13,133 nucleotides of DNA from a virus. How positions within the stretch are numbered: the stretch's first letter is position 1; every line of letters begins with the position of its first letter. Shown here one piece after another: positions 928 through 12,708 of the stretch. The notes under the pieces were generated by a model. That model made no database searches. It was not told the origin of the DNA and worked only from the letters and a program-made list of their open reading frames with translations. The stretch lies in IMG/VR virus record IMGVR_UViG_3300045988_162215, one strand, 5' to 3'. Both the position numbers and the translations under genes were made by a program.

Positions 928-928
928 A

Positions 929-1111: not shown

Positions 1112-1173
1112 AATTATCAACTTCCTTTCCTTATTTTCTATATATATTATATAATAATTTTTATAAAAAATAA

Positions 1174-1194: not shown

Positions 1195-1444
1195 ATTGTT
1201 TATTATCAATTTTTATTACTTCACATGTTTCATATAAAAGATAACCAGTAAACAACACAAATAAAGGATACTCTAATGGCATAATAAAAAGAATATATAG
1301 TAAAGTTACTATCATACCAAGATTATCATATTTGTGCATCATGTCAAGTTTTCTATTTCTACAATATTCTGATGAAACAATAAAACAAATAGAAACAAAA
1401 GCTCCCACAAAAAGCATCAGAAAAAAATGCATTGATAAATACAT
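1193..1444 (-). CDS. small membrane protein (83 aa, two predicted TM helices)
   Basis: Hydrophobic ORF. Start probably ATG 1444..1442 with RBS GGTAGGTG (the track start was a GTG inside the RBS). Last gene of the kinase-like/SprT operon. Confidence 0.6.
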   Translation of the reverse strand: MYLSMHFFLMLFVGAFVSICFIVSSEYCRNRKLDMMHKYDNLGMIVTLLYILFIMPLEYPLFVLFTGYLLYETCEVIKIDNKQ

Positions 1445-1453
1445 GTTATACAC

Positions 1454-1954
1454 CTACCAATTCTGTTTAATTTTTACTATTGCACCACAACATTTTGTTG
1501 TATAAAACTGTGGCTGTTTAACAACTTTACCAGCTCGCGCGAATCCTTGAATAAACTTTCCACACTTACTGCAATAAGCTGTATATTTATATGCTTTATC
1601 TACATCTTCTCCAAAGAACTCCTTTTGAGAGAAATGGACGTCGCCTGAGCCACCAAGAGACAAGAAGATGTTCTTCCAAGTGCTGTCATGTCCATGATTT
1701 TGCCCATCAAAAAGAAAGGCTAAGACATGCGCGAGTTCATGCTTGATAGTGTCCATGATCTCAGCATCGTTGTTGCTATCAAGCAAGACTGCCGCGAACT
1801 CAACCTTCTCTACTTTATTACTTAAATGGTTAATAGTTACCCGCCCAAAGGTATTCTTGAACCTATTGTTAATAGAGATAGGAAGATCAACATCATATCC
1901 CTGTGAAACCATAATCTTTTTACAAATATCTTTTACTTCAATTAAAGTTTTCAT
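1454..1954 (-). CDS. SprT-like zinc metallopeptidase (HELAH...H motif plus C-terminal CxxC...CC zinc ribbon), 166 aa
   Basis: Motif TIKHELAHVLAFLFDGQNHGHDSTW matches HExxH(x)nH. Zinc ribbon CSKCGKF...TTKCCG. Start at ATG 1954..1952 with RBS GGGAGGA at 8 nt; the track start overlaps the upstream gene. Confidence 0.75.
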   Translation of the reverse strand: MKTLIEVKDICKKIMVSQGYDVDLPISINNRFKNTFGRVTINHLSNKVEKVEFAAVLLDSNNDAEIMDTIKHELAHVLAFLFDGQNHGHDSTWKNIFLSLGGSGDVHFSQKEFFGEDVDKAYKYTAYCSKCGKFIQGFARAGKVVKQPQFYTTKCCGAIVKIKQNW

Positions 1955-1958
1955 AGTA

Positions 1959-2675
1959 TTAGTCCTCCCACCATCCAGAATAGTCAATAATACAAGGTGT
2001 ACCATCTGATACTCGATATCCAATATTTTCATTATGTAAATCCATAGAGATACTTCTAGCAATATCAGAATCGCTCTTTAAAAACTCTAAAAAATTAAAT
2101 GTTTTATCTTCGCCATAAGATTTAATTAAATCTAAAATAAAACGACTTGGGAAAAAACGTTTTCCTTCAAGTTTATTATTATATTTTTCAATATCTTTAG
2201 CAGTTTTTTCTTGAAAATTATAATCACAAGTATCATACTTATTCTCATAAGTTTCACATTTTTCTTGTACATAGTGTAGATTATCAATTTCTTTAGTTTT
2301 AGCTAAGAAAATCTCATATCCGTTTCCTTCATCTATGCACTCTTGGTAAATATCTGCTTCAATCTGACAGAAATTATCTAGGATATCTTCTTTTATATCC
2401 GGTAAATCCGGATCATATGTAAGATCATCACCATTATTTGCGTTATAATAAAAAGTTGTATTGAAAGGAATCTTAATTACAACATCAAGGTCAGGATCAA
2501 TAATTACTGCTTTTGAAACCCCATGATTAACAATAGCTTCCTTATTGATGTCATGCACTTCATTTGTAAAATCATAAAGTTCATTTGAATCTTCTCCATC
2601 TTCACAGTAATATCCAAACTCGTTTGGGACATGAATAGTCTTATAGATATTAAGTCTTTCTTCTTTTGATAACAT
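1959..2675 (-). CDS. protein-kinase-like (APH/choline-kinase-like) protein, 238 aa: VVIK lysine motif, Brenner-like DLHNEN, and CIIDYSG (DFG-equivalent)
   Basis: Lys motif to catalytic D is about 145 aa and D to D about 19 aa, as in aminoglycoside phosphotransferases. RBS GAAAGGAA upstream. Product call from motifs only. Confidence 0.7.
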   Translation of the reverse strand: MLSKEERLNIYKTIHVPNEFGYYCEDGEDSNELYDFTNEVHDINKEAIVNHGVSKAVIIDPDLDVVIKIPFNTTFYYNANNGDDLTYDPDLPDIKEDILDNFCQIEADIYQECIDEGNGYEIFLAKTKEIDNLHYVQEKCETYENKYDTCDYNFQEKTAKDIEKYNNKLEGKRFFPSRFILDLIKSYGEDKTFNFLEFLKSDSDIARSISMDLHNENIGYRVSDGTPCIIDYSGWWED

Positions 2676-2739
2676 GCAACATCAATTCCTTTCTTTTTTC
2701 ATTTTCTATAATTATTATAACAAAAAATTATAAAAAAAT

Positions 2740-2767
2740 AAAGCATAGCAAATAAAAGCTATGCTTT
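2740..2767 (-). terminator. intrinsic terminator (AAAGCATAGC/GCTATGCTTT, loop AAATAAA) followed by U-run on minus strand
   Basis: 10-bp perfect stem, then TTATTTTTTTATAA on the minus strand. Lies between the operon ending at 2855 and the promoter of 1959..2675. Confidence 0.65.
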
Positions 2768-2854
2768 AATAATTTTAATATCAGTGTTAATAAGAATAGT
2801 GAAGATATAACAAATCAAAAATAAAATACAATCTACTTTATCTTAAACTATTCA

Positions 2855-3052
2855 TCAGTAAACACCTCTCATTTCTCTTTTATTTATTTTTTCTAACTTC
2901 TGTGCGCGGTTGTCGGTTCTGCGAGGACGAGATCCAGGCTTAGGGTTATACTTGTTGCAGGTCTTACAGGCTTTATTAAATGTGCCTTCTCTACCTTTAA
3001 GACACTTACCCTCATATTCATAATATCTACATACTCTTTCCCTATCCTTCAT
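2855..3052 (-). CDS. small basic Cys-rich protein (65 aa; CRYYEYEGKC...CKTC, putative zinc-binding)
   Basis: RBS GGAGGAG 7 nt before ATG 3052. Four Cys in CxxxxxxxC...CxxC arrangement. Confidence 0.6.
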   Translation of the reverse strand: MKDRERVCRYYEYEGKCLKGREGTFNKACKTCNKYNPKPGSRPRRTDNRAQKLEKINKREMRGVY

Positions 3053-3056
3053 AAAT

Positions 3057-3251
3057 TTACTCCTCCTTTACATAGATAGTGATTTTACCATCTTCAAGCA
3101 TACAAGCTTCAAAATCATCATTGTCGAGTTTAAAATTAACAAGCCAATATGGAGTATCCCATACCCTACCTTCAAAAAGAATTTCATCATCTTCTTTTAT
3201 AACAACTTCTTCTTCAAAGTAGAAATTTTTAATAAATTTTCCAAGCTTCAT
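3057..3251 (-). CDS. hypothetical acidic protein (64 aa)
   Basis: RBS GAGAGGA 6 nt upstream of ATG 3251..3249. Tightly packed in the operon. Confidence 0.6.
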   Translation of the reverse strand: MKLGKFIKNFYFEEEVVIKEDDEILFEGRVWDTPYWLVNFKLDNDDFEACMLEDGKITIYVKEE

Positions 3252-3254
3252 AGA

Positions 3255-3416
3255 CTATCCTCTCTTATAGATTCGCATCATGTCATACTCTTCTCCAACT
3301 GCTTTAGGCTCCTGCCACTGAGCGCCGCACTTAATACACTTTACTGTATAGTGCTTATCCTTTGGATCACATGCAATAACACGATATTCTTTATGTTTAC
3401 ACTTAAATATTCTCAT
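3255..3416 (-). CDS. small zinc-ribbon-like protein (53 aa; MRIFKCKHKEYRVIACD...VKCIKCGAQW), not in ORF track
   Basis: ATG 3416..3414 preceded by GAAAGGAG at 9 nt. Frame open to TAG at 3257..3255. It fills the gap between promoter 3449-3477 and gene 3057..3251, whose RBS lies in its last codons. Confidence 0.55.
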   Translation of the reverse strand: MRIFKCKHKEYRVIACDPKDKHYTVKCIKCGAQWQEPKAVGEEYDMMRIYKRG

Positions 3417-3448
3417 TTTGATGTTCTCCTTTCATATTTTCTATAATT

Positions 3449-3477
3449 ATTATATCAAAAAAATTATAAAAAAACAA
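3449..3477 (-). promoter_or_regulatory. promoter (extended -10 TGaTATAAT, weak -35 TTGTTT, 17-bp spacer) for the 3416->2855 operon
   Basis: Member of the repeated intergenic cassette TTTTTTTATAATTTTTTTGATATAATAATTATAGAAAATGAAAGGAG seen at 232-285, 1132-1170, 2691-2740, 3425-3475 and 5866-5921. Confidence 0.5.
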
Positions 3478-3500
3478 CAGGTGATATTTATTCACCTGTT
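3476..3500 (-). terminator. intrinsic terminator (AACAGGTGA/TCACCTGTT, loop TATTTAT) followed by UUUUUUU on minus strand
   Basis: Hairpin carries the stop codon of 3488..3838 in its loop. T-run follows on the minus strand. Confidence 0.65.
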
Positions 3501-3838
3501 GCGCTTATATAGTTCTTTGTTTTTTGATAATCTTCTTCTGAAATTGTTTTTAAGACATTTCCTTCTTGTGATATTATATGATTATCTTGTAGATAATTTG
3601 CTTCTATTGTGTTTGCATTAACCGCGGTTACCGTCACTTTGGCACTATTACAGCCAACTATAATGATGCCAACAACCGAGGCTGCCGCGAGTATGCCTAA
3701 AATTAACCGAATAACATTAAAAGAACTATATTCAATTAAACTAAAAATAAAAGCAATTACAAAAGCAAAGGCAAATATGATAAGTAAAAGTATAGATGGA
3801 TGTATATAGGTTATTTGCGTGGTATATAAAACTTCCAT
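3488..3838 (-). CDS. membrane protein (116 aa, two TM helices)
   Basis: Start ATG overlaps the upstream stop as TAATG (translational coupling). Hydrophobic N-terminal half. Confidence 0.65.
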   Translation of the reverse strand: MEVLYTTQITYIHPSILLLIIFAFAFVIAFIFSLIEYSSFNVIRLILGILAAASVVGIIIVGCNSAKVTVTAVNANTIEANYLQDNHIISQEGNVLKTISEEDYQKTKNYISATGE

Positions 3839-4563
3839 TACTGATATTTCTCCTTTAATAAATCTGTTTCATTAAGTTGATATAATGCAGTCAACTCATC
3901 TATCTCTCTTGTTATATCAACGGCAGACTCATCTGCTTGAATCTGTTTTAACATTTTGATACTTTTAGATACTGACTTTAATTGAATTTGTTTTTCAAGT
4001 TTCTTCTTGGTCTTAGAGAGTAAATCAAGTATCTGCTTTGTTTGATCATCTGGATTGGGTATATTTGACAATTCACAGATACTTTTTCTAATCTTTTCCA
4101 ATTTTCTCTCTAGTTTATTCGTATTAAGCTCTATAAAAACCATAATTAAATAGAACACAATAATTATTAAATAGCCGATATTTCTCACGTAATTACCAAA
4201 ATTCCATTGTGATTTTGCAAATTTAGTAAAATCATCATGTGTTTTAATATTAGCATCATATTTTTCATTATATTTTTCTACTAAATCGTTATATTTCTCA
4301 ATAGCATATCCAGCTGAATAATCTTTATCTGTAAAATTATCGCTTTTTAAATAAACAACTGCTGATGCACTCCAAAGAAGACAGTTTGTAAGAAAAATAG
4401 TAATAAGAATTGCTATAATTACATAATTAGCAGTATCGTCTATTTTTTTAAGCATTTTGTTTATAAGCTTAATTTTATTTTTACCTAAGACACATATTAT
4501 TATTATAGATAAAGAAAAAAACATAGCAATAGAACAAAAGCCATGTAAAGCATATATCGTCAT
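3838..4563 (-). CDS. membrane protein with 3-4 TM helices and C-terminal coiled-coil/charged tail (241 aa)
   Basis: RBS AAGGTGAG 5 nt before ATG 4563..4561 (the track start was a GTG inside the RBS). Function unknown. Confidence 0.7.
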   Translation of the reverse strand: MTIYALHGFCSIAMFFSLSIIIICVLGKNKIKLINKMLKKIDDTANYVIIAILITIFLTNCLLWSASAVVYLKSDNFTDKDYSAGYAIEKYNDLVEKYNEKYDANIKTHDDFTKFAKSQWNFGNYVRNIGYLIIIVFYLIMVFIELNTNKLERKLEKIRKSICELSNIPNPDDQTKQILDLLSKTKKKLEKQIQLKSVSKSIKMLKQIQADESAVDITREIDELTALYQLNETDLLKEKYQ

Positions 4564-4581
4564 ATAGCTCACCTTCTTTTC

Positions 4582-4728
4582 TTACATAAAATAACTTTTC
4601 ATATATATAGTTGTTTTTGTATTACCATTTTTATCTGGCAAGGTTTCCCACCAAAAACAATAGGAAGTAACTTTGCCCTTGCCGCGGTTTTGCTTTGTGA
4701 ACTTTACAGCTAGATCATCCATATTCAT
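4582..4728 (-). CDS. small basic protein (48 aa, MNMDDLAVKFTKQNRGKGK...), start embedded in 3' end of upstream gene; not in ORF track
   Basis: Perfect RBS AAGGAGGA 5 nt before ATG 4728..4726, in the +1 frame of gene 4715..4915. Its stop at 4582 sits just before the RBS of 3838..4563. Fills an otherwise empty 140-nt gap. Confidence 0.4.
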   Translation of the reverse strand: MNMDDLAVKFTKQNRGKGKVTSYCFWWETLPDKNGNTKTTIYMKSYFM

Positions 4729-4915
4729 TGAATTCCTCCTTAATAATTCTATCTAGCTCTTCTCGTGGAATAATAATTAAGTTTTCCTTATCTAAATATT
4801 GACTTTTAAGAATGGTTGCTAAATCCTTTGCGCCCATGTGATAAATAATATCTTCCTCTGATGGTTCGTATTCATCAAATTGATAGCCTGTATCATCCAT
4901 TAAACCTTCTCGCAT
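4715..4915 (-). CDS. hypothetical acidic protein (66 aa)
   Basis: RBS AGAGAGGAGGA 5 nt before ATG 4915..4913. Confidence 0.6.
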   Translation of the reverse strand: MREGLMDDTGYQFDEYEPSEEDIIYHMGAKDLATILKSQYLDKENLIIIPREELDRIIKEEFNEYG

Positions 4916-5087
4916 ATGGATCCTCCTCTCTTGTTATCCGTGACAACGGATGCACATAATCTGGTTCTCTTGTTTCTATATTTATGCAATTATATGGTGT
5001 CGCGTCATCCCAGTACATAGGTATCTTTATAAAGGGGACGCCGCCACAAATAAAAAAGTCTGCAAGCCGCAAATCACGAAAAACCAT
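4893..5087 (-). CDS. hypothetical protein (64 aa)
   Basis: RBS AAGGAGAT 5 nt upstream of ATG 5087. The 3' end overlaps the next gene start by 23 nt. Confidence 0.6.
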   Translation of the reverse strand: MVFRDLRLADFFICGGVPFIKIPMYWDDATPYNCINIETREPDYVHPLSRITREEDPYARRFNG

Positions 5088-5101
5088 AAAATATCTCCTT
5101 C

Positions 5102-5356
5102 TTATTTTTCATATGGTGACATATCTCTTCTAGTTACAGTCATTTCTGCATCCAAGAAGTAAATTTGATTATCCGATAAAAAACGAGCTAATTGTCCATT
5201 TTTAAGATTAACTGCATTAACTTGAATGGAGCAATCTTCTGGATAGTTTGCGGTTTCAATTTTCATATAACAATTATTGTTATATTCAAATAAATCTCCT
5301 ATATTAACAGATTTGAAAGGGTATGTTTGATTAGTTGGTATTTTTATTTTAAGCAT
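5102..5356 (-). CDS. paralog 3 of a tandem small-protein family (84 aa; ...GDLFEY...NAVNLKNGQ...)
   Basis: RBS AAAAGGAG before ATG 5356..5354 (the track start was an upstream TTG). Shares sequence pattern with 5374..5604 and 5637..5858. Confidence 0.65.
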   Translation of the reverse strand: MLKIKIPTNQTYPFKSVNIGDLFEYNNNCYMKIETANYPEDCSIQVNAVNLKNGQLARFLSDNQIYFLDAEMTVTRRDMSPYEK

Positions 5357-5373
5357 ATTATTACTCCTTTTAA

Positions 5374-5604
5374 TTAACAAATTCCAAATCCTGATGATGT
5401 CGTTAGAGTTAACTCATCTACTGGAATAACTCTGTTATTAGCGCGGAAAGCATAAAATTCTCCATTTTGTAAATTAACTGCATTTATTTTATGTCCTTCA
5501 ACCTTTATAAAAGCAATGTCATCTTCGCCATATAGGAAGATTTCTCCTACCTTTAGTTGGCTAAAAAGACATTTCTTATCTGAAAGAAGCTTTCTTATTT
5601 TCAT
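5374..5604 (-). CDS. paralog 2 of tandem small-protein family (76 aa; ...VGEIFLY...INAVNLQNGE...)
   Basis: RBS AGGAGGGA 4 nt before ATG 5604..5602. The track start was in-frame upstream, so real start is M11. Confidence 0.65.
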   Translation of the reverse strand: MKIRKLLSDKKCLFSQLKVGEIFLYGEDDIAFIKVEGHKINAVNLQNGEFYAFRANNRVIPVDELTLTTSSGFGIC

Positions 5605-5636
5605 TATATCCCTCCTAGCATTTAATGGATACATTC

Positions 5637-5858
5637 TTATCTTGAAATAGACAATGTTGCTTTTACTGGAAATACTACTGTATCAGAGCTAACTTCAGCT
5701 AGCATATTCTTAGTTAAATCTACAGCATTTTTACAACTATTATTACCACCCACTTTTAAGAAAACGGAATCATCAGCATTGCTACTTAACATAAAACACT
5801 CTCCAATTTCAAGTTTTTTAAATCTAATACCTGTTAGAAGATTTTTTTCAATTATCAT
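5637..5858 (-). CDS. paralog 1 of tandem small-protein family (73 aa; ...IGECFML...KNAVDLTKNM...)
   Basis: RBS AAAGAAGG 7 nt before ATG 5858. First gene of the long leftward operon. Confidence 0.65.
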   Translation of the reverse strand: MIIEKNLLTGIRFKKLEIGECFMLSSNADDSVFLKVGGNNSCKNAVDLTKNMLAEVSSDTVVFPVKATLSISR

Positions 5859-5947: not shown

Positions 5948-5976
5948 TTGACAAACAAAAATAAGTTTGTTATAAT
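5948..5976 (+). promoter_or_regulatory. rightward consensus promoter TTGACA-17-TATAAT for plus-strand cluster
   Basis: TTGACA 5948-5953, spacer aacaaaaataagtttgt, TATAAT 5971-5976. About 95-nt leader to ATG 6076 with RBS GGAGGGAG. Confidence 0.7.
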
Positions 5977-6075: not shown

Positions 6076-6360
6076 ATGGATTATTTTAATAGAAATAATG
6101 ATGAAGAGATGGGTGGGATCAGCTATTGTAGCTGTGATTTGAACCCAACTGGTATTACTGCTAATCGAATTAAGTTTGGCGATGTGACAATGGATATAGG
6201 TGATTTAAGAGTAGATAAATATGATAAAATAATAAAAGAACTGTCTGATAAAGTTGAAGTAATTATGAAACATTGTTCTTTTAAACAAGAGAAGAAAATA
6301 AGTGAGTGGCGGGAGTTTGACTTAGAGGCTGCTACAGGGAGAGAGTTTGAGACACGATGA
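6076..6360 (+). CDS. hypothetical protein (94 aa)
   Basis: RBS GGAGGGAG 5 nt before ATG. Stop overlaps the next start (ATGA). Confidence 0.65.
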   Translation: MDYFNRNNDEEMGGISYCSCDLNPTGITANRIKFGDVTMDIGDLRVDKYDKIIKELSDKVEVIMKHCSFKQEKKISEWREFDLEAATGREFETR

Positions 6361-6560
6361 GTTGGGTTATTATTTTGATTTATATAGCGATAGCTATTGT
6401 TAGTTTATATTTTGGATTTCGCGCGGGAGTTGAATTGATTGTTGCGGCGATCCGCAAGAATCCAAATAAAATGTTGGCGGCAATGGGAATAAGAGTAGTA
6501 AGGAGAGTTGAACATGAGGATACCACAAAGCGTGGCTCGCGCGATAGTAAGAATACATGA
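6357..6560 (+). CDS. small protein with N-terminal TM helix and basic C-terminus (67 aa)
   Basis: ATGA overlap with the upstream gene. Weak RBS (GGGAGAGAG about 11 nt upstream). Confidence 0.5.
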   Translation: MSWVIILIYIAIAIVSLYFGFRAGVELIVAAIRKNPNKMLAAMGIRVVRRVEHEDTTKRGSRDSKNT

Positions 6561-6602
6561 TTTCATTGTTTATAGAATTTGGACAAAATTCTAAACTATG
6601 TG

Positions 6603-6617
6603 TTGGGCAAAAGCCAA
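6603..6617 (+). terminator. weak hairpin TTGGGC-aaaa-GCCAA followed by TAATTTGTTTG
   Basis: Short imperfect stem after the stop of 6357..6560. May attenuate before the internal promoter-like TTTGTA-17-TATAAT at 6625-6653. Confidence 0.25.
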
Positions 6618-6669
6618 TAATTTGTTTGTAATTGTTTACAAATATAGTATAATGAGAGAAAGGAGGATT

Positions 6670-6840
6670 ATGGAATTGAATCTTCAAGAAACATGTCAGC
6701 GATTGAGGCTGAGTGAGTCGACTCTACGAGAGGCGTTTCCGCGCACTGTTAGAACTTTAGAAAAACAAGGTATTAAATTAACTAAAGTTGGCAGAGGGCA
6801 GAATGCAGATTATACTATTGAATATGTAAACAAGGAGTGA
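6670..6840 (+). CDS. putative helix-turn-helix DNA-binding protein (56 aa; MELNLQETCQRLRLSESTLREAF...)
   Basis: RBS GAAAGGAGGA just upstream of ATG 6670 (short spacing). The track ORF started further upstream without an RBS. HTH-like segment QRLRLSESTLRE. Confidence 0.5.
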   Translation: MELNLQETCQRLRLSESTLREAFPRTVRTLEKQGIKLTKVGRGQNADYTIEYVNKE

Positions 6841-6845
6841 TTTAA

Positions 6846-7028
6846 GTGCCAATAAGAACCAAATATAAAACCATTTATTCTTTAAGAGTAAGGATGCTTT
6901 TAAGGGATATGGGTTTTGAGCCTCTATTAGAAAAAGATAATATATATAGATCTGGATTGAAGTGCTGGATATATGAAGTTACAGATAATTTTAATAAAGC
7001 TCTTGATAAAATATTAGGGGGTAATTAA
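6846..7028 (+). CDS. hypothetical protein (60 aa), GTG start
   Basis: RBS AAGGAG 8 nt before GTG 6846. Stop 1 nt before the next RBS/ATG. Confidence 0.5.
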   Translation: MPIRTKYKTIYSLRVRMLLRDMGFEPLLEKDNIYRSGLKCWIYEVTDNFNKALDKILGGN

Positions 7029-7029
7029 A

Positions 7030-7317
7030 ATGAAAGCTGTAACCACAGATAGACCAGTTAAGTATGAGCCGGGAGAATTTTTTCAAATTTCAAATAAAGG
7101 TTTGAAGGCAGCAGCTAGTCTTAATAATAATGGATTATTATTGTGGTTATATTTGTGTAAATTTAAGAGTGGTACTAAGTGGAAGATAAGCCCGCAGGCT
7201 ATCAGTAATGAACTGGGGATAACTTTAGATAAAGCTAAGAAGGTTTCAACTATTGGATACCAAGAATTAGTTGCAGCAAATTTTATTAGAGATGATGTGT
7301 TCTACGCGGACGGTTAA
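7030..7317 (+). CDS. winged-helix DNA-binding protein resembling RepA_N / phage replisome-organizer N-terminal domain (95 aa)
   Basis: Motif GLLLWLYLCKF...WKISPQAISNELGITLDKAKKVSTIGYQELVAANFI resembles the initiator winged helix of Firmicute plasmids and phages. RBS GGGGGT. Lies directly upstream of the iteron array. Confidence 0.6.
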   Translation: MKAVTTDRPVKYEPGEFFQISNKGLKAAASLNNNGLLLWLYLCKFKSGTKWKISPQAISNELGITLDKAKKVSTIGYQELVAANFIRDDVFYADG

Positions 7318-7320
7318 ATA

Positions 7321-7480
7321 AAAGTGCTAAAATGGCACTTTTTAGATACAAGGAGTCTATTAAAAAGTGCTTAATCGGCACTTTTATATACAAGGAAAAG
7401 TGCTTAATAAGCACTTTTTAATGAGCAGAAAGTGCTTAATTGGCACTTTTTTCTAAGGAAAAGTGCTTAATCGGCACTCT
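7321..7480. repeat. array of five 21-bp palindromic iterons AAAGTGCTTAAT(N)GGCACTTT at 7321, 7364, 7397, 7429, 7460 (spacing 43, 33, 32, 31 bp)
   Basis: Seen directly. Copy 3 (7397-7417) is a perfect palindrome AAAGTGCTTA-A-TAAGCACTTT; the others differ at 1-3 positions. Spacing is about three helical turns. Confidence 0.85.
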
Positions 7481-7520
7481 AATATATAAATAGAGAATAA
7501 ATACTAAATAAATAAATAGA
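7481..7520. other. 40-bp AT tract (4 G/C in 40) immediately after iterons; candidate DNA-unwinding element
   Basis: aatatataaatagagaataaatactaaataaataaataga. Confidence 0.5.
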
Positions 7521-7521
7521 C

Positions 7522-7578
7522 GGTATAAATAATCTTTACGTAGTTCGCTTCGCTCACTACTCCAAGATTATTTATACC
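7522..7578 (+). repeat. hairpin A: 15-bp stem GGTATAAATAATCTT/AAGATTATTTATACC, internal loop, 4-bp inner stem GTAG/CTAC, 13-nt loop TTCGCTTCGCTCA
   Basis: Perfect inverted repeat seen directly. Confidence 0.8.
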
Positions 7579-7625
7579 TTTAGGCGCGGCGTAGTGATGT
7601 AATGTTACAAAGGGGCCGGCGTAAA

Positions 7626-7680
7626 GAGATTAAAACCTTGGAATAATGAGCGAAGCGAATTATGGAATGGTTTTAATCTC
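7626..7680 (-). repeat. hairpin B: 12-bp stem GAGATTAAAACC/GGTTTTAATCTC, internal loop, 4-bp inner stem ATAA/TTAT, 13-nt loop TGAGCGAAGCGAA (exact reverse complement of loop A)
   Basis: Same architecture as hairpin A with a different stem sequence. The loop is identical when read on the opposite strand. Confidence 0.8.
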
Positions 7681-8045
7681 GTCCCTATATTTAATAGTGT
7701 ACTACTTTTTTAACATTTTTCTTAGAGTTGATTGCTCAATTGAGTTGGAGCAAAGGAGAAAAAGGATGGATATAAATATATTGAAGAGGGGTATGATAAT
7801 ATGGATTTTATAAATACTTGTGTAAGACCTAAGTCATATAATATTTATATATTAGATATTGATGATGTGGCGGATAGTATTATGAATCCGCGGCGGTTTT
7901 AAGGGCTAGGTTAAAAGGGGTGCAGGGCAATGCCGCGCATACAGACATTAGTTTTAAAAAATGATCTGAATTTGGGTTAGAAGCCCAAGCCTCCCTTTTA
8001 TCTTACGTTACTTTGCTATTGTTATTAAAGAGAGGAGAAATAGTT

Positions 8046-8294
8046 ATGTTTAATACGGAGATTGTTGCTAAGGATATTGATGGTATAAAGACGCAGTTGA
8101 GGAAGGCATATGATGGCGATGTGCCGGCGGGTTTAGCTGTTTTTTATTGGTTAAAGAATAATGGTATAGGGATTAGAGATAGGAATGGTGAGGTTGTTAG
8201 GGATGAAGATTTGTATAGTTTTTGTATAAATTATGGCGCGAGTGTTGATAGGGCTATTGTTGCGGCGAAGGGTGAAGGCGCATATGGCGTTTAG
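8046..8294 (+). CDS. hypothetical protein (82 aa)
   Basis: RBS AGAGAGGAGAAA 6 nt before ATG 8046. The track ORF began at an upstream in-frame TTG. Confidence 0.6.
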   Translation: MFNTEIVAKDIDGIKTQLRKAYDGDVPAGLAVFYWLKNNGIGIRDRNGEVVRDEDLYSFCINYGASVDRAIVAAKGEGAYGV

Positions 8295-8335: not shown

Positions 8336-8501
8336 CAGGACATTTTGTCTTTATAATAGTGTTTTGTTTTTAGATAGCACTTTATGTTGAATAGTGTTTT
8401 TGTCGCTGGATAGTATTTTGTCTTTGATAATGTGTTAGATAGCATTTTTGTCTTTAGATAGTGTTAGATAGTACTGTATAGTGTCAGATAGTGTTTTTAT
8501 C
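8336..8501. repeat. degenerate direct-repeat array, units TAGATAGTGT / TTTTGTCTTT alternating with about 10-bp periodicity (at least 10 units)
   Basis: e.g. tagatagcat|ttttgtcttt|agatagtgt|tagatagtac|tgtatagtgt|cagatagtgt|ttttatctgg. Lies between convergent genes 8046..8294 and 8640..9008. Confidence 0.7.
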
Positions 8502-8599
8502 TGGCCGCGCATACCCTGGACCATGTTACCGTCACCGTTATCGTTTTAGTCTCTCTTTTCTTTATTAAGAGATCCCTAGACGAGAACCCGCGCAAAAAA

Positions 8600-8626
8600 T
8601 CCCTGTACACATTACATGTACAGGGA
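8600..8626 (-). terminator. intrinsic terminator TCCCTGTACA/TGTACAGGGA, then UUUUUU on minus strand
   Basis: 10-bp perfect stem downstream of the stop of 8640..9008. AAAAAA at 8594-8599 on the plus strand gives the U-run on the minus strand. Confidence 0.65.
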
Positions 8627-8639
8627 CTAACTACTTAGA

Positions 8640-9008
8640 CTAAAAGAACTTGAAAAGATTGAACAACTCCGCCATAGGATCTGACTCTGACTTCTTCTTT
8701 ACCTTAGGCTTAGGCTTACTCTCCGCTGTATCCATTGCCTGAATAAAAAGCTCGATAAACTTCAACTTATCAGTCATGTCCTTTGTAATCTCATTTGCGT
8801 CTTTCTCTGAAATTTCAGCTCCAGTAATAGCTTCCACATAATCCAACAAATCAGCAATCAGATATTTTCTTGCATCTTCTACCTCTGTAGGATCAATCTT
8901 TCTCTTATCCTTGGCTGCGGCAACCGCATCGGCTTCCGCCTGCGCCATCTTGCTAATCTCTTCAACTGACTTTCCTTCTGCAATAAGTTCTGCTATTGTT
9001 TTACTCAT
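8640..9008 (-). CDS. acidic protein with basic/hydrophobic C-terminal tail (122 aa)
   Basis: RBS AGAAGAGG upstream of ATG 9008. Its own promoter is at 9048-9076. Confidence 0.7.
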   Translation of the reverse strand: MSKTIAELIAEGKSVEEISKMAQAEADAVAAAKDKRKIDPTEVEDARKYLIADLLDYVEAITGAEISEKDANEITKDMTDKLKFIELFIQAMDTAESKPKPKVKKKSESDPMAELFNLFKFF

Positions 9009-9047
9009 AGTCTATAACCTCTTCTTTCTATTTCATTTTCTATATAT

Positions 9048-9076
9048 ATTATATAATAATTTTTCAGAAGTGTCAA
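9048..9076 (-). promoter_or_regulatory. consensus promoter TTGACA-17-TATAAT (minus strand)
   Basis: Reverse complement of tgtcaa 9071-9076 and attata 9048-9053, spacer 17. Confidence 0.65.
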
Positions 9077-9205
9077 AGGCACGAAAGCATATACCAGTAG
9101 TAAAATTGTAATTAGCTGTAACTATATCTTTTCTATTGTTGCGGGTATTTGTTCGTTTTTATATGAGAATAAGAAAAAACGAAGCTAATTTACCTCCCCT
9201 ATATA

Positions 9206-9234
9206 ATTATATCAAAAATACGAAAAAATGTCAA
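9206..9234 (-). promoter_or_regulatory. orphan promoter TTGACA-17-TATAAT followed by SD GGGGAGGT with no start codon or ORF downstream
   Basis: Minus strand reads TTGACAttttttcgtatttttgaTATAATtatataGGGGAGGTaaattagcttcg. The nearest in-frame start is a non-canonical ATT giving an 18-aa ORF. Confidence 0.5.
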
Positions 9235-9369
9235 GAAAGATGCGCTGAGGCATTTATCAATAGAATCACTGTAATTCGATACAGTAAGCCATTTTTTATT
9301 CTGACGGATATTTTTACGTTTCAGATAGAAAACGAGCAAATTTACAACAAAAGTAAGTCAAACATCTAA

Positions 9370-9469
9370 TTTCGGGATCCGTATGGCGGTTTTCAGATTT
9401 CAAACAACCAGGAAAAAAAGCCATATAGGGTCTGGTCGTGGGAACTCGGCGTTGCCCGGTGGTCAACGC
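9370..9469 (-). ncRNA. candidate small RNA transcribed leftward from promoter 9476-9504; begins with GC hairpin GGCGTTG/CAACGCC
   Basis: Consensus promoter with no ORF of at least 40 aa and an RBS downstream over 460 nt. The transcript 5' end folds into the 9448-9470 hairpin. The 3' end is undefined. Confidence 0.25.
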
Positions 9470-9475
9470 CGCGAC

Positions 9476-9504
9476 ATTATACCACATTTTATGTGCTTTG
9501 TCAA
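9476..9504 (-). promoter_or_regulatory. consensus promoter TTGACA-17-TATAAT (minus strand) driving an ORF-less transcript
   Basis: tgtcaa 9499-9504 and attata 9476-9481 on the plus strand. Confidence 0.6.
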
Positions 9505-9547
9505 GTAAAAAAATAAAAAAATAGAGGAAAATTCCTCATTTTTTAAG
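9505..9547 (-). terminator. intrinsic terminator: 10-11-bp stem GGAAAATTCCT/AGGAATTTTCC, then UAUUUUUUUAUUUUUUU
   Basis: Inverted repeat 9516-9526 / 9537-9547 downstream of the stop of 9568..9960. Long T-run on the minus strand. Confidence 0.6.
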
Positions 9548-9567
9548 GAATTTTCCCCTAAAAACCT

Positions 9568-9960
9568 TTATTTCTTAGGTTTTCTCTGTTCAATTAAATC
9601 GATTTTGAACTTGCGACCATTGATTTCTAAAGAAATCAGCTTATTTTCCTTAATAATCTCAACCTTTTCGCCATAAATACTTTGCAAATTAGTTAAAATA
9701 TTATGGAAAACTTCTTTTTTTTCATCAGAAATCTTAACTGTCCTAGGCTTTGAATCCTTGCGTTTTTCCTGGGTAATACCATGATCAACTCTCTGTCCTT
9801 TGGTTTTCTCTTCCAACTCGACAACCTCTTCCATTGTAAACCCTTCGGGACACTCTTCCAACTCTTCACAGGGTTTATCCCACATTTCATGGCAAAGCAT
9901 TTTACCATTCTTACAAATAAGATTTCCGCAATCTTCACACAACTTGATATTCATATTCAC
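9568..9960 (-). CDS. protein with N-terminal Cys-rich zinc-ribbon (CEDCGNLICKNGKMLCHEMWDKPC) and charged C-terminal region (130 aa)
   Basis: RBS GAAAGGGG upstream of ATG 9960. Promoter at 9986-10014. Confidence 0.7.
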   Translation of the reverse strand: MNMNIKLCEDCGNLICKNGKMLCHEMWDKPCEELEECPEGFTMEEVVELEEKTKGQRVDHGITQEKRKDSKPRTVKISDEKKEVFHNILTNLQSIYGEKVEIIKENKLISLEINGRKFKIDLIEQRKPKK

Positions 9961-9985
9961 AACCCCTTTCTTTTACTGTACCTAT

Positions 9986-10014
9986 ATTATAACACAAGAG
10001 GTTGAGAATGTCAA
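9986..10014 (-). promoter_or_regulatory. consensus promoter TTGACA-17-TATAAT (minus strand)
   Basis: tgtcaa 10009-10014 and attata 9986-9991, spacer 17. Confidence 0.65.
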
Positions 10015-10024
10015 CCTTTAATTT

Positions 10025-10056
10025 GCGGTTTTCGGTGGGAGAATCCCACCGACCGC
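10025..10056. other. GC-rich hairpin GCGG-tttt-TCGGTGGGA-gaa-TCCCACCGA-CCGC between two minus-strand genes
   Basis: 9-bp perfect stem plus outer GCGG/CCGC. A T-run follows only on the plus strand (CACATTGTTTTT). It carries the 3' flank motif CGC-CACATT shared with the other GC hairpins. Confidence 0.4.
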
Positions 10057-10068
10057 ACATTGTTTTTA

Positions 10069-10467
10069 CTAGCCCGCGATATCCTCAGTATTAAGGGCGA
10101 AGGTCATCTTCTTACCATCTGGAATACGGCGAACCTTGTAAACCATAGATGGAAGTCTGTTTTCTTCCTTTGCTGGACCGGCAAGCTGTGTCATAAGTGC
10201 GACAATCTTGTTAAGCGAATACTCGCCATTAAAGGCATTCATAATCTCTGTACAAGTCATAGGCTTTGAATCCTCGAGCAAGTCAAGAATCATATTCTTG
10301 ATTTCTGCGTTCTCGGTCTGATTCTTAGACGGCTTACGGTTTGCATTCTTCTTGTTAAGAATAGCAATCTCCTTACGGCAAAAGTCCTTGATATCCTCGG
10401 ATACGCCATCAATAGCCATAATCATCTCAAAATACTGCTTCTTTGTTGTCTTGTTTGTTGTTGTCAT
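10069..10467 (-). CDS. Lys/Thr-rich N-term plus C-terminal winged-helix-like domain (132 aa); fed by four tandem promoters
   Basis: RBS AAAAGGGGT upstream of ATG 10467. Segment CTEIMNAF...KIVALMTQL...VYKVRR resembles wHTH. Product unknown. Confidence 0.7.
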   Translation of the reverse strand: MTTTNKTTKKQYFEMIMAIDGVSEDIKDFCRKEIAILNKKNANRKPSKNQTENAEIKNMILDLLEDSKPMTCTEIMNAFNGEYSLNKIVALMTQLAGPAKEENRLPSMVYKVRRIPDGKKMTFALNTEDIAG

Positions 10468-10516
10468 AAAACATACCCCTTTTCTTAATAAATTCTTAAC
10501 TCTTTGTTACATATAC

Positions 10517-10545
10517 ATTATAACATATTTTGTAAGGTTTGTCAA
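10517..10545 (-). promoter_or_regulatory. promoter Pm1 TTGACA-17-TATAAT immediately upstream of gene 10069..10467
   Basis: tgtcaa 10540-10545, attata 10517-10522. Confidence 0.65.
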
Positions 10546-10608
10546 GCATTTTTTTTATTATTTTCTTTTCGGTTTAGAACCTTTAATCTTCCTTGACCTT
10601 ACATACTT

Positions 10609-10637
10609 ATTATAACATATTTTTTAATGTTTGTCAA
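10609..10637 (-). promoter_or_regulatory. promoter Pm2 TTGACA-17-TATAAT (part of 175-bp tandem duplication)
   Basis: tgtcaa 10632-10637, attata 10609-10614. About 50 bp identical to the Pm3 copy. Confidence 0.6.
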
Positions 10638-10783
10638 TAGGTTTTTTAAGATTTTTAAGAAATAACAATGATTTTAGGCGGATATGGAATAAGGCTCAAC
10701 CAAAATTGCCAACTCATTATCCCTTTTATTATTGGTTTTTTATTTCCTTTATCATTGTTTTCTTAACTTTATCTTACATACTT

Positions 10784-10812
10784 ATTATAACATATTTTTT
10801 AATGTTTGTCAA
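10784..10812 (-). promoter_or_regulatory. promoter Pm3, exact duplicate of Pm2
   Basis: cttacatacttattataacatattttttaatgtttgtcaataggttttt occurs at 10598-10646 and again at 10773-10821. Confidence 0.6.
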
Positions 10813-10893
10813 TAGGTTTTTGAAAGTTTCTAAAATTTGTTTTCCTCACGACCGAGGTTGCTATTTTGTTTTCTTTCCTTACCTTGTAAATAC

Positions 10894-10922
10894 ATTATAA
10901 CAAAATATTTATAGAAAATCAA
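10894..10922 (-). promoter_or_regulatory. weaker promoter Pm4 (TTGATT-17-TATAAT)
   Basis: attata 10894-10899. The -35 is rc of aatcaa at 10917-10922. Confidence 0.35.
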
Positions 10923-10927
10923 TATCG

Positions 10928-10980
10928 GAAAATTGCACAAAATTCGGGATGTACAAGGTTAAAAAATTTGTGCAATTTTC
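10928..10980. repeat. inverted repeat GAAAATTGCACAAA ...25 nt... TTTGTGCAATTTTC
   Basis: 14-bp perfect arms at 10928-10941 and 10967-10980. Abuts the -35 of the plus-strand promoter at 10984. Confidence 0.7.
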
Positions 10981-10983
10981 CTA

Positions 10984-11013
10984 TTGACAAATGCCAGAGC
11001 TATGTGGTATAAT
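10984..11013 (+). promoter_or_regulatory. plus-strand promoter TTGACA-18-TATAAT firing rightward into GC hairpin 11019-11041
   Basis: TTGACA 10984-10989, TATAAT 11008-11013. Confidence 0.55.
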
Positions 11014-11046
11014 AGTTCGGCGTGCAAGGGGCGTGCACGCCGCGCC

Positions 11047-11075
11047 ATTATAACACATAATGAATTATTTGTCAA
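11047..11075 (-). promoter_or_regulatory. minus-strand promoter TTGACA-17-TATAAT; its transcript begins with hairpin 11019-11041 and runs through IR 10928-10980
   Basis: tgtcaa 11070-11075, attata 11047-11052. Confidence 0.55.
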
Positions 11076-11092
11076 CCCCTAAATTAAAAAAA

Positions 11093-11119
11093 TGTGGGCG
11101 AGTTTAGGCTCGCCGCACA
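11093..11119. terminator. bidirectional intrinsic terminator (TGTGGGCGAG/CTCGCCGCACA) flanked by AAAAAAA upstream and TTTTCGATTTCC downstream
   Basis: A-run 11085-11092 gives a U-run for the minus-strand gene 11133..11360. The T-rich 11120-11131 serves the plus-strand sRNA candidate. Confidence 0.65.
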
Positions 11120-11132
11120 TTTTCGATTTCCA

Positions 11133-11360
11133 CTAATCTTCAATGATTAACTTCGCTTTAAGTTTACGAATAGGTCTTTCTGAAAAATCACAAATAACTC
11201 CTTCTATAGCTCCGCTGTCAAGGTCAACAATATATGTATCATAATTATCAGCACATAACATACAAGGTTTATTATCATCTAAAAATGTAAAAACTTCACC
11301 ATTATCTAAATCTTCGCAACTTAAATATCCCTTAACTTCAATCTTTCCAATAATTTCCAT
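11133..11360 (-). CDS. hypothetical acidic Cys-containing protein (75 aa)
   Basis: RBS AAAGGTGA 5 nt before ATG 11360..11358 (the track start was an upstream GTG). Promoter at 11404-11432. Confidence 0.6.
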   Translation of the reverse strand: MEIIGKIEVKGYLSCEDLDNGEVFTFLDDNKPCMLCADNYDTYIVDLDSGAIEGVICDFSERPIRKLKAKLIIED

Positions 11361-11403
11361 TTTAATCACCTTTTTAACCTTTCTTTCTCTTGTTTATATA
11401 CTT

Positions 11404-11432
11404 ATTATACTATATTTATTATTATTTGTCAA
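11404..11432 (-). promoter_or_regulatory. consensus promoter TTGACA-17-TATAAT
   Basis: tgtcaa 11427-11432, attata 11404-11409. Confidence 0.65.
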
Positions 11433-11446
11433 GTATTTTTAGAAAA

Positions 11447-11466
11447 ATAGGCATTTCTGCCTATTC
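11447..11466 (-). terminator. terminator hairpin AATAGGCA-tttc-TGCCTATT, then UUUUCU on minus strand
   Basis: Overlaps the stop of 11461..11751. Directly upstream of the next promoter. Confidence 0.5.
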
Positions 11467-11751
11467 TTCAGAGATATTTGCGAAGGGCATCTTCGGACAA
11501 GGATAATCGTCAACCACTGATGAGCCACCATAAGTGGTTCGTACCATTGACACTCTCCACGCCACATCCGCAAGTCTATCAATACAACTTGGATAACTAC
11601 TCGTACACCAAATTTCTCCATTCTTACGAAAAATATCCTGATATGTGCCTTTAATTGTAGTTAAAAGACTAATCACATCTTCGATTTTCTGTTCCTCTTC
11701 TGGTGTCAAAGTAATTGTTTCAATACGTTTCTCGCCTGTAATAATTTCCAT
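11461..11751 (-). CDS. hypothetical protein (96 aa)
   Basis: RBS AGAGAGGT 7 nt before ATG 11751. Promoter at 11783-11811. Confidence 0.65.
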   Translation of the reverse strand: MEIITGEKRIETITLTPEEEQKIEDVISLLTTIKGTYQDIFRKNGEIWCTSSYPSCIDRLADVAWRVSMVRTTYGGSSVVDDYPCPKMPFANISEE

Positions 11752-11782
11752 ATAATTTACCTCTCTTTCACTTTCTATAATT

Positions 11783-11811
11783 ATTATATCATTATTATTT
11801 TAATTTGTCAA
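11783..11811 (-). promoter_or_regulatory. consensus promoter TTGACA-17-TATAAT (lies inside the 3' end of gene 11795..11998)
   Basis: tgtcaa 11806-11811, attata 11783-11788. Confidence 0.6.
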
Positions 11812-11998
11812 CATTTAATTCATAAATATTGTAATAAATTTTTGTTATCCAAGTATTTCTTATTATTCGCCAACATTTCCAAATAGGTCTTTGCCAACTT
11901 TTAAGATTAAAGCCTAAAATAAACAATGCCTTAAAATTTTTCCATGATTTTTCTTTAAGCCAATTATCTATTACTAAATACTGTGTTTTTGTTATCAT
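11795..11998 (-). CDS. Trp-rich basic small protein (67 aa)
   Basis: RBS AGAGAGGT 7 nt before ATG 11998. Promoter at 12024-12052. The 3' end overlaps the downstream promoter. Confidence 0.5.
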   Translation of the reverse strand: MITKTQYLVIDNWLKEKSWKNFKALFILGFNLKSWQRPIWKCWRIIRNTWITKIYYNIYELNVDKLK

Positions 11999-12023
11999 TC
12001 TTATTACCTCTCTTTCTACAATT

Positions 12024-12052
12024 ATTATATCACAGCTGGCTTACTTTGTCAA
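12024..12052 (-). promoter_or_regulatory. consensus promoter TTGACA-17-TATAAT
   Basis: tgtcaa 12047-12052, attata 12024-12029. Confidence 0.6.
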
Positions 12053-12205
12053 GCACTTTTTTATTGCGTATTCAACTGGCGAAACTGGATAAACACAAAC
12101 AACTAATTCTTGAAGCAATTGTGACGCTTGTTTTTTATTTCTAATAGCCTTTTTACTTTTTATATATTGAAAACCATTAGCAGTTTTTATTTTATAATAT
12201 TTCAT
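12041..12205 (-). CDS. small basic protein (54 aa, MKYYKIKTANGFQYIKSKKAIRNKKQ...), not in ORF track
   Basis: RBS AGTGAGGT 9 nt before ATG 12205..12203. Its own TTGACA-17-TATAAT promoter is at 12233-12261. The stop overlaps the downstream -35. Confidence 0.45.
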   Translation of the reverse strand: MKYYKIKTANGFQYIKSKKAIRNKKQASQLLQELVVCVYPVSPVEYAIKKCLTK

Positions 12206-12232
12206 TTCTTATCAACCTCACTTTCTATACCT

Positions 12233-12261
12233 ATTATACCACCGCTGACCTACTCTGTCAA
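12233..12261 (-). promoter_or_regulatory. consensus promoter TTGACA-17-TATAAT
   Basis: tgtcaa 12256-12261, attata 12233-12238. Confidence 0.6.
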
Positions 12262-12708
12262 AAGTAAATCAGCTAAAAAATCAATAATATTTTCTGCGGT
12301 CGGATCGACTGTTTCTCCCAAACTCCAACCCTTGCGAACCTTTGCGTTATCATCAAAAAGAATCTGATTTCCGCCATGCTTGCGTGTGCAGTTTGCTTTT
12401 GTTGTGCCATACTTCACAAGATGGATTTCATCAAAAGGGAAATCATATCGAGCAAGCCAATCTCTTTTTGCAGTTCTCACAACCTCGTCGAAGTCTTTTG
12501 TGGAATCTTTAGACAACCAAGATGTGACAACGATTCTATAACCGACACTCTTCAAACAACAGAGAAGAGAACCAAGCAAAGCCATATCCCAAAGTGGCTC
12601 AGCCATAATGTAAGGGCGCGGGTTCTCGTTGTGTAAATCCTCAAGCCAGCCCTCTACTCCATAGAAATTTGCGATTGTTCCATCCATGTCAAATACTAAT
12701 GTTTTCAT
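12250..12708 (-). CDS. HAD-superfamily 5'(3')-deoxyribonucleotidase (NT5C-like), 152 aa
   Basis: N-terminal motif I FDMDGT (DxDGT), motif II VVTSW, motif IV ILFDDN. Size and layout typical of phage NT5C-type nucleotidases. RBS AAGAGGT 7 nt before ATG 12708. Confidence 0.8.
   Translation of the reverse strand: MKTLVFDMDGTIANFYGVEGWLEDLHNENPRPYIMAEPLWDMALLGSLLCCLKSVGYRIVVTSWLSKDSTKDFDEVVRTAKRDWLARYDFPFDEIHLVKYGTTKANCTRKHGGNQILFDDNAKVRKGWSLGETVDPTAENIIDFLADLLLTE

Follow-up and report, generated by a model that had tools for sequence, protein, structure and literature searches.

The 13,133-nt stretch of viral DNA analysed here, referred to as the window (IMG/VR record IMGVR_UViG_3300045988_162215; all coordinates refer to it), carries an array of five palindromic sites just behind the gene for a 95-aa winged-helix protein. 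The array runs into an AT-rich tract, which is followed by a hairpin and, further downstream, by an inverted copy of that hairpin. An initial annotation had proposed a lambda-like replication origin at this locus. We see about an even chance that the array and the AT tract constitute an iteron-type replication origin served by the stand-alone, single winged-helix protein. The features of the element are as follows.

7030-7317, plus strand: gene for a 95-aa stand-alone winged-helix protein, the candidate iteron-binding initiator
7321-7341: palindromic site 1, AAAGTGCTAAAATGGCACTTT; strain variation in the central spacer only (7329, 7332, 7333)
7364-7384: palindromic site 2, AAAGTGCTTAATCGGCACTTT; strain variation in the spacer only (7376-7377)
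7397-7417: palindromic site 3, AAAGTGCTTAATAAGCACTTT; its 11-bp arms are perfect (7396-7418) and it varies only at its centre (7407)
7429-7449: palindromic site 4, AAAGTGCTTAATTGGCACTTT; invariant in 16 loci
7460-7480: palindromic site 5, AAAGTGCTTAATCGGCACTCT; invariant
7481-7521: AT-rich tract with repeated (A)ATAAATA motifs, a candidate DNA-unwinding element; strain-invariant
7522-7578: hairpin 1, 57 nt, with 23-nt imperfect arms and the loop TCGCTTCGCTC (7545-7555); invariant in all strains
7626-7680: hairpin 2, which repeats hairpin 1 in inverted form and has the complementary loop GAGCGAAGCGA

The palindrome array and the sequences behind it

The 21-bp dyad AAAGTGC-N7-GCACTTT was present in five copies within 7321-7480, starting at 7321, 7364, 7397, 7429 and 7460, as the initial annotation had described, and one of them (site 3) was indeed a perfect palindrome of 11+1+11 bases. 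Only 0.01 copies of AAAGTGCYWARNNNGCACTTT at up to two mismatches were expected in shuffles of the window, and the observed count was reached in none of 200 shuffles. The looser core AGTGC-N7-GCACT occurred nowhere in the window outside the array, and in one 140-kb IMG/VR contig the matches to a 14-base pattern were confined to the array stretch. A search of IMG/VR with a loose form of AAAGTGC-N7-GCACTTT returned more than 100 unrelated single hairpins, so single copies are meaningless; clusters were found only in the present phage. A resemblance to the HrcA/CIRCE element (TTAGCACTC-N9-GAGTGCTAA) was rejected, since GCACT and AGTGC are oppositely oriented within each site and since the GCACT and AGTGC of adjacent sites lie 15-16 nt apart, not 11.

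The centre-to-centre spacings from site 1 to site 5 were 43, 33, 32 and 31 bp. The spacing of 31-33 bp previously given for the whole array held for the last three intervals and not for the first. At 10.5 bp per turn, all five centres fell within approximately 0.3 turn of each other, which agrees with the earlier placement of the sites on one face of the helix. Strain variation left the half-site arms untouched: all variable positions in 7318-7600 fell within inter-site linkers or within the central spacer of site 1, 2 or 3, and no variation at all was seen in 7429-7586, a stretch that takes in the last two sites, the AT tract and hairpin 1. The right arm of site 5 was degenerate and merged into the AT tract, as it did in the related contigs L145 and L146. 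Across 12 related loci, 6601-7600 was the most conserved kilobase of the window (98.4-99.7% identity versus 79-97% elsewhere), and its flanks were the most variable (79-89%).

The 40 bp at 7480-7519 contained 90% AT, matching the tract first reported, and formed the third least stable 40-mer of the window (stability z = 2.56). The two hairpins further on are not mentioned in the initial annotation. Hairpin 1 directly behind the tract had a folding free energy (dG) of -13.4 to -14.9 kcal/mol as DNA (z approximately -7). A hairpin in the equivalent position of contig L023 had the identical loop TCGCTTCGCTC on a different stem, which suggests that both the loop sequence and the stem structure may matter. 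The loop of hairpin 2 was missing in L001, L002, L013 and L143 and was deleted in the L001 sequence; hairpin 2 and the long-range pairing between the hairpins are thus not conserved and dispensable, and hairpin 2 is probably accessory. Long-range pairing of the hairpins as an essential element, including a 26-bp minus-strand RNA stem with G-U wobbles, was rejected on account of this loss.

The arrangement was not restricted to the window. In six lineages, namely the window and contigs L023, L024, L025, L145 and L146, whose proteins were 35-54% identical to that of the window, the winged-helix gene was followed by 4-12 semi-palindromic sites starting at or just after its stop codon, and these by an AT tract. 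The arrays compared as follows.

Window: 5 sites, AGTGC-N7-GCACT, centre spacing 43, 33, 32 and 31 bp
L145: 4 sites, AGTGC-N7-GCACT, centre spacing 44, 33 and 32 bp
L146: 4 sites, AGTGC-N7-GCACT, centre spacing 44, 33 and 32 bp
L023: 7 sites, AGTGT-N7-ACACT, centre spacing 32, 32, 32, 28, 22 and 21 bp
L024: 12 sites, AGTAT-N6-GACACT, centre spacing mostly 37 bp, some 21 bp
L025: 7 sites, GTGCC-N5-GGCTC, centre spacing 21-35 bp

The spacing pattern of L145 and L146 matched that of the window. In all six lineages the AT tract followed the array at once, with AATAATAAATA or a near variant behind the last site. L023 was an exception with respect to the gene boundary: in the contig as read, its open reading frame (ORF) stopped after approximately 101 codons and the array began inside the last codons. 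The called 128-aa product of this ORF (P0002) runs into the repeat array.

The type of repeat tracked the type of protein, as predicted for a cognate pair of protein and site. Three protein subgroups, distinguished by an indel in the helix-turn-helix (HTH) region of the alignment, corresponded to three repeat types (AAAGTGC-type, GGTCTAA and AAAATTTGAC). Among the more distant members, two with a four-residue deletion in this region, P0007 and P0012, were flanked by GGTCTAA/TTAGACC half-sites, and the subgroup of P0013-P0015 was associated with AAAATTTGAC repeats, seen beside P0015 in L019. The units of L024 had a fixed asymmetry (GTATA...GACAC) and did not fold (dG -0.8, z 0.09), and are therefore predicted to be binding sites in duplex DNA rather than hairpins or terminators.

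The winged-helix gene, its operon and its phage

ORF 7030-7317 was preceded by a GGGGG ribosome-binding site. Among its 12 distinct alleles, 13 codon changes were synonymous and two were conservative non-synonymous changes, which identifies it as a real gene under purifying selection. The predicted structure of the product was a single winged helix of 95 aa, with the protein ending at residue 95 directly after the wing. Its fold resembled the winged-helix domain of the two-domain iteron Rep proteins (pi, RepE and RepA; Rep_3); the RepA_N structure 4pta (4.9), the winged helices of ORC and Cdc6, and DnaD-N (4.0) ranked lower in the fold comparison. Foldseek searches of PDB and BFVD returned no significant match, with several named replication proteins among the weak BFVD matches, and a profile search of PDB sequences yielded only a MarR match (E-value, E, 0.14). 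A single-sequence AlphaFold model (pLDDT 54) was too poor and was not used.

An exhaustive HMMER search yielded a family of 13 members with 95-156 aa and 29-54% identity to the window protein. Seven of the 13 matched the Pfam family PF13730 HTH_36 (best E 5e-07), which bears out the winged-helix assignment of the initial annotation, and three matched MarR_2. The phage families reached were phrog_270 'replication initiation protein' (seven members, best E 1.2e-06), phrog_186 'DnaD-like helicase loader' (six members), and the O-like phrog_345 and phrog_678 (one member each, E 0.002-0.005). All matches to phrog_270, 186, 7882, 345 and 678 were confined to profile positions 13-119 of 297-383; the family thus corresponds to the N-terminal DNA-binding domain of phage initiators in free-standing form. 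On sequence grounds, the window protein family belongs to the HTH_36/phrog_270-type N-terminal domain. The supposed relation to replisome organizers and DnaD proteins was accordingly recovered through the relatives of the window protein, in the N-terminal part of phrog_270, phrog_186 and O-like families. The RepA_N affiliation (PF06970) put forward along with it was not: the window protein gave no match at E<=1, and the 13 members gave none at E<=0.1.

A C-terminal DnaD-like or loader-interacting domain was missing from the family. The longer members (P0003, P0004, P0009, P0010 and P0006 in alignment A3) carried acidic, low-complexity C-terminal tails with aromatic ends (..NNNWGF, ..NGGFVF, ..KPGFNF), which recall the partner-docking C-terminal tips of single-stranded DNA-binding (SSB) proteins. 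The window protein has no such tail.

The winged-helix gene is part of a small plus-strand operon (6076-8294) that carries the array and lies between minus-strand genes spanning 319-5858 and 8640-12708. Upstream of the winged-helix gene, the following features were found.

5948-5976, plus strand: perfect sigma-70-type promoter, TTGACA-17-TATAAT with TG (12/12 consensus matches)
5921-5893, minus strand: perfect sigma-70 promoter, divergent partner of the 5948 promoter
6670-6840, plus strand: small HTH gene with 56 aa in the gene calls of related contigs; start of the longest ORF at 6598
6846-7028, plus strand: DUF5659-like small gene, 60 aa from a GTG or 44 aa from the ATG at 6894; 50% identity to the L025 homologue

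Judging by its position, the 5948 promoter probably drives the operon, so that transcription would cross the array. The order of the operon was a CopG-type ribbon-helix-helix (RHH) or small HTH gene, then DUF5659, the winged-helix gene and the repeats. The product of 6670-6840 had weak HTH matches only (MerR and HTH_17, E 0.03-0.15), and its gene takes the place that a CopG-type RHH gene has in relatives: RHH_1 was matched by the first operon gene of L024 and L025 (E 1e-06 and 2e-08), with a weak precomputed RHH_1 match in L145. The L025 homologue of the 6846-7028 product matched DUF5659 (PF18903). A DUF5659 gene directly upstream of the winged-helix gene was kept as a pair in L016-L019, L021, L024 and L025; in L145 and L146 the gene in this position had no Pfam match on record. 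A literature search on DUF5659 found no paper mentioning the family. Upstream of the DUF5659/winged-helix pair, three of the more distant relatives (L018 5639-5775, L021 52-124 and L019 5650-5727) had an AT-rich stretch with 3-4 GC-rich palindromes, CGTTCGCTGGAGCGAACG in L018 and L021 and GTTTCC-N4-GGAAAC in L019. The CGTTCGCTGGAGCGAACG palindromes contain TTCGCTCCAGCG, which is shared with the hairpin 1 region of L023.

The genome of the window had a GC content of 32%. The identical 95-aa protein was listed in 621 index blocks of the assembly collection, with pig-gut metagenomes among the sources; the longest contigs bearing it were 137-148 kb long (from pig-gut and other metagenome assemblies), and the same phage was present in IMG/VR as contigs of 122-140 kb. 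A neighbouring 642-aa protein shared 24-29% identity with hypothetical proteins of approximately 140-kb Enterococcus phages. Neither megablast of the complete window against collections of phages and plasmids nor tblastn of the window protein and one relative against 50,697 phage records gave a match. A search with an alignment of three sequences recovered this phage and no other in IMG/VR, and had no match in 185,579 GTDB species-representative genomes. The additional suggestion of a phage-plasmid was not upheld, given the lack of relatives in these species genomes and of a partition gene within 10 kb on either side. With its abundance of tiny ORFs, its perfect sigma-70 promoters and the distant similarity of the 642-aa neighbour, the window has the look of an SPO1-like early region. 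The source is most likely an uncultured gut phage of Firmicutes of approximately 140 kb, distantly SPO1/Herelleviridae-like.

A candidate iteron-type origin and its rivals

Several phased sites with the gene of their predicted binding protein nearby, as in the functional class of iteron origins, were found here. In the mechanism that we propose, the 95-aa product, to judge by homology and fold a lone winged-helix domain related to the origin-binding N-terminal domain of phage initiators, would bind the five palindromes as dimers, as is suggested by the adjacency of gene and sites, by the tracking of protein subgroup and repeat type, and by variation that spares the arms. With sites approximately three and four helical turns apart, the dimers would come to lie on one face and could form a wrapped complex like the lambda O-some. 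The strain of this complex may open the adjoining AT tract with its conserved AATAATAAATA-type motif. More speculatively, hairpin 1, extruded or single-stranded, might become accessible to phage or host proteins that provide a primer or load the helicase, and transcription from the 5948 promoter, crossing the origin, might activate or prime it as at ori-lambda. Since an effector domain is missing from the 95-aa protein, the replisome would have to be recruited through a partner or, alternatively, through the transcript; the always-adjacent DUF5659 protein is the obvious candidate for such a partner. We infer the steps beyond binding of the protein to its sites from the sequence. New in this system are that the protein is free-standing with only 95 aa, that it is in constant company with DUF5659, and that an AT motif and a hairpin are conserved beside it.

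Several observations weigh against an origin. The window protein itself had no direct match in Pfam, PHROG or NCBIfam, so its link to initiators is transitive, via its relatives, and it contains no domain with a known role in recruiting a helicase, loader or primase. The scanned genes of the window yielded no helicase, primase or polymerase domain, and neither did the Pfam matches on record for called genes within 10 kb on either side in the related contigs. DnaA boxes were neither present nor enriched, and several intergenic stretches of the window were about as unstable as the AT tract. The module lies in a small opposite-strand island here and at a convergent gene junction in L018, L021 and L146, neither of which is the divergent arrangement that origins often show. 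Replication of large virulent phages, moreover, can start without a dedicated initiator.

Compared with known systems, the element is like lambda O/ori-lambda in having several iterons flanked by an AT-rich tract and adjoining a phage-encoded candidate initiator. In lambda, the iterons lie next to the AT tract, and transcription through the region activates the origin (PMC7466680). Unlike in lambda, where the iterons and AT tract are inside the O gene, they follow the stop codon here. Lambda O has approximately 300 aa and a C-terminal domain that recruits P-DnaB, whereas the present protein has 95 aa and no such domain, and no match to the Pfam O family was found in the window protein or in the 13 family members. 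The description as lambda-like therefore stands for the joint recurrence of gene, palindrome array and AT tract in six lineages, and fails for the position of the iterons outside the gene and for the missing C-terminal domain of O.

The semi-palindromic form of the sites is shared with RepA_N iterons, which are semi-palindromic repeats converging on a poly-A tract (PMC7145576). Unlike the RepA_N proteins (pSK41/pTZ2162 RepA, Vibrio PLE RepA), the 13 family members had no PF06970 match, and the window protein is missing the host-specific C-terminal domain. In many RepA_N plasmids, the iterons are located inside repA. R6K pi, F RepE and pPS10 RepA have two winged-helix domains and bind direct repeats of approximately 22 bp as monomers; here, a single domain is combined with palindromes, which implies dimers, and the sequence families of these proteins were not matched. 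Membership in the RepA_N, lambda O or two-domain Rep families was rejected, as their defining features were tested for and not found.

By sequence, the family resembles the Firmicute phage initiators and DnaD-like organisers of phrog_270 and phrog_186 (SPP1 G38P-type), with N-terminal winged-helix homology at E down to 1.2e-06. Those proteins have 300-380 aa and a C-terminal DnaD-like or loader-interacting part, whereas the present family consists of the N-terminal domain alone. HTH_36 has been reported in phage replication regions and plasmid Rep proteins (PMC8951638, PMC3832669). By analogy, the present system would work most like the RepA_N or O-type iteron systems.

The gene order also recalls small replicons. 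The minimal replicon of pRN1 is described as a repressor gene, a rep gene and an essential downstream region (PMC4234260), and the order of a small RHH/HTH repressor gene, a replication protein gene and a downstream cis element is like that of pRN1 (orf56/orf904). Unlike the cop-rep-ori replicons, which have large enzymes or multi-domain proteins as Rep, the present operon has a DUF5659 gene interposed, and its 'Rep' is a DNA-binding domain only. In the Inc18 plasmid pAMbeta1 (copF-repE-ori), the origin lies just downstream of rep and the rep transcript supplies the primer. It is possible, if on balance doubtful, that the small repressor, DUF5659, the 95-aa gene, the phased palindromes, the AT-motif tract and the conserved-loop hairpin together are a self-contained minimal replicon of a new type. 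A protein consisting of a DNA-binding domain only would then open the origin, and the replisome might enter via DUF5659 as an adaptor or via the through-transcript of the strong early promoter as a primer; in the longer relatives, the SSB-tip-like acidic-aromatic tail could serve this entry. Such a replicon would give DUF5659 its first function and would contain the smallest known iteron initiator.

The foremost rival explanation, which we regard as unlikely but worth serious attention, is transcriptional control. On this view, the winged-helix protein would act at the array as a repressor, an activator or a roadblock, controlling read-through from its own operon into the downstream gene or stopping convergent transcription, and its resemblance to initiators would reflect shared winged-helix ancestry only. 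The lack of an effector domain is expected of a simple DNA binder, MarR_2 was matched by three of the 13 family members, and the array is inside an operon between two co-directional genes in the window, L023, L025 and L145. Site 3, in addition, scores terminator-like on the minus strand. HTH_36 has been described as conserved in many transcription regulators (PMC3832669). A small part of the probability is reserved for an explanation not considered here.

It is improbable that the array is a centromere-like or DNA-organising site (cf. tubC-TubR, parC-ParR and the omega heptads), with the protein coating it to position or segregate the phage DNA. There is a precedent in TubR, a winged-helix protein of approximately 100 aa whose targets are iteron arrays of Bacillus plasmids and Clostridium phages, and the site number of 4-12 and the regular spacing would fit; however, no TubZ, ParM or ParA domain was found in the scanned window genes or the neighbourhoods of relatives, and no partner nucleoside triphosphatase was among the Pfam matches on record for called genes within 10 kb on either side. 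We assign a slim chance to a packaging recognition site (pac or cosB-like), at which the protein, as an accessory DNA-recognition subunit or one resembling a small terminase, would mark the starting point of packaging. A precedent is provided by small terminases and lambda gpNu1, which bind phased repeats through N-terminal (winged) helix-turn-helix domains; the resemblance of the window, with its many tiny genes and perfect sigma-70 promoters, to the SPO1-like early host-takeover region, which in SPO1 lies within the terminal repeat, also fits. A role of the palindromes as hairpins at the nucleic-acid level, whether as tandem intrinsic terminators, as RNA stabilisers or as a structured non-coding RNA, is very improbable: every unit is a hairpin made up of A-tract, stem and T-tract (DNA dG -7 to -8.9 kcal/mol), and RNA folding of the complete region is good (z -8.3), but the homologous L024 units are asymmetric and non-folding, only one of the five units passed the terminator scan (on the minus strand only), Rfam gave sub-threshold chance matches only, and the regular spacing of approximately 32 bp with invariant arms and variable loops fits recognition of duplex DNA by a protein.

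If the element is an iteron-type origin, a replication origin and its recognition protein would be defined for an uncultured clade of approximately 120-150-kb gut phages. To our knowledge, the large SPO1-like phages, to which this clade bears a distant likeness, have poorly defined origins. It would also mean that the origin-binding domain of initiators can persist as a free-standing 95-aa protein, which raises the question of how a replisome is recruited without an effector domain and gives DUF5659 a testable role. The short element (approximately 260 bp plus the 288-bp gene) could serve as a phage-dependent replicon or as a replication-interfering decoy.

Other features of the window

Downstream of hairpin 2, two genes have decayed and left 7700-7900 as their remnant. 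Both (117 and 118 aa, without family matches) are intact in L001 (10666-11342) and L002; the window retains only their fused start and end. This decay explains the many indels there, and ORF 7646-7813 is consequently probably not a gene. Behind a conserved block (7905-7965) and directly upstream of gene 8013, a hairpin at 7971-7989 had compensatory stem changes among strains (TTTGGGTT..AGCCCAAG, TCGAGGC..GCCTCGAG and TTGGAACC..GGTTCCAA) and may be a terminator or a 5'-untranslated region element.

A second repeat array was found at 8342-8500, close behind gene 8013-8294 and between convergent genes, and shares the layout of a small gene followed by a repeat array with the 95-aa gene. It contained at least eight degenerate direct copies of (T)TAGATAGTGTT(TTTGTCTT), the copy number of which varied between strains. 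AGATAGYR occurred five times in 8342-8500 versus 1.7 expected across the whole window. The array was followed by an invariant GC-rich block (8500-8560). An intrinsic terminator for gene 8640-9008 lies on the minus strand at 8594-8628 (AAAAAATCCCTGTACA...TGTACAGGGA); its inner-stem/loop region was TGTACATGTAATGTGTACA in L001 and TGTACACATTACATGTACA in the window.

Further sigma-70 promoters were present in the window, one of them perfect:

9076-9048, minus strand: perfect sigma-70 promoter

Five or six near-perfect promoters (TTGACA-17-TATAAT), mostly on the minus strand, were clustered at 10480-11090, within approximately 650 bp of conserved sequence without a convincing ORF, as is typical of a strong-early or host-takeover region. 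The 560-bp non-coding stretch at 9009-9567 was 97-98% conserved among strains and had a GC-rich hairpin near 9440-9475, with no Rfam match. The Rfam scan of the window yielded only sub-threshold chance matches, which were due to hairpins, and no tRNA genes were found in the window.

Clear family assignments in the window were limited to two genes. Gene 1454-2062 encodes a SprT-like metalloprotease (PF10263, E 5.9e-14), and gene 12250-12708 had weak Pfam HAD matches and a match to the PHROG family '5'-3' deoxyribonucleotidase' (5.6e-08). Three consecutive small minus-strand genes at 5102-5380, 5374-5634 and 5637-5858 (92, 86 and 73 aa) appear to be a small tandem paralogue family beside the divergent promoter: the products of the first two share the PHROGs 7431, 8365 and 6570 of unknown function, and that of the third is similar by eye only.

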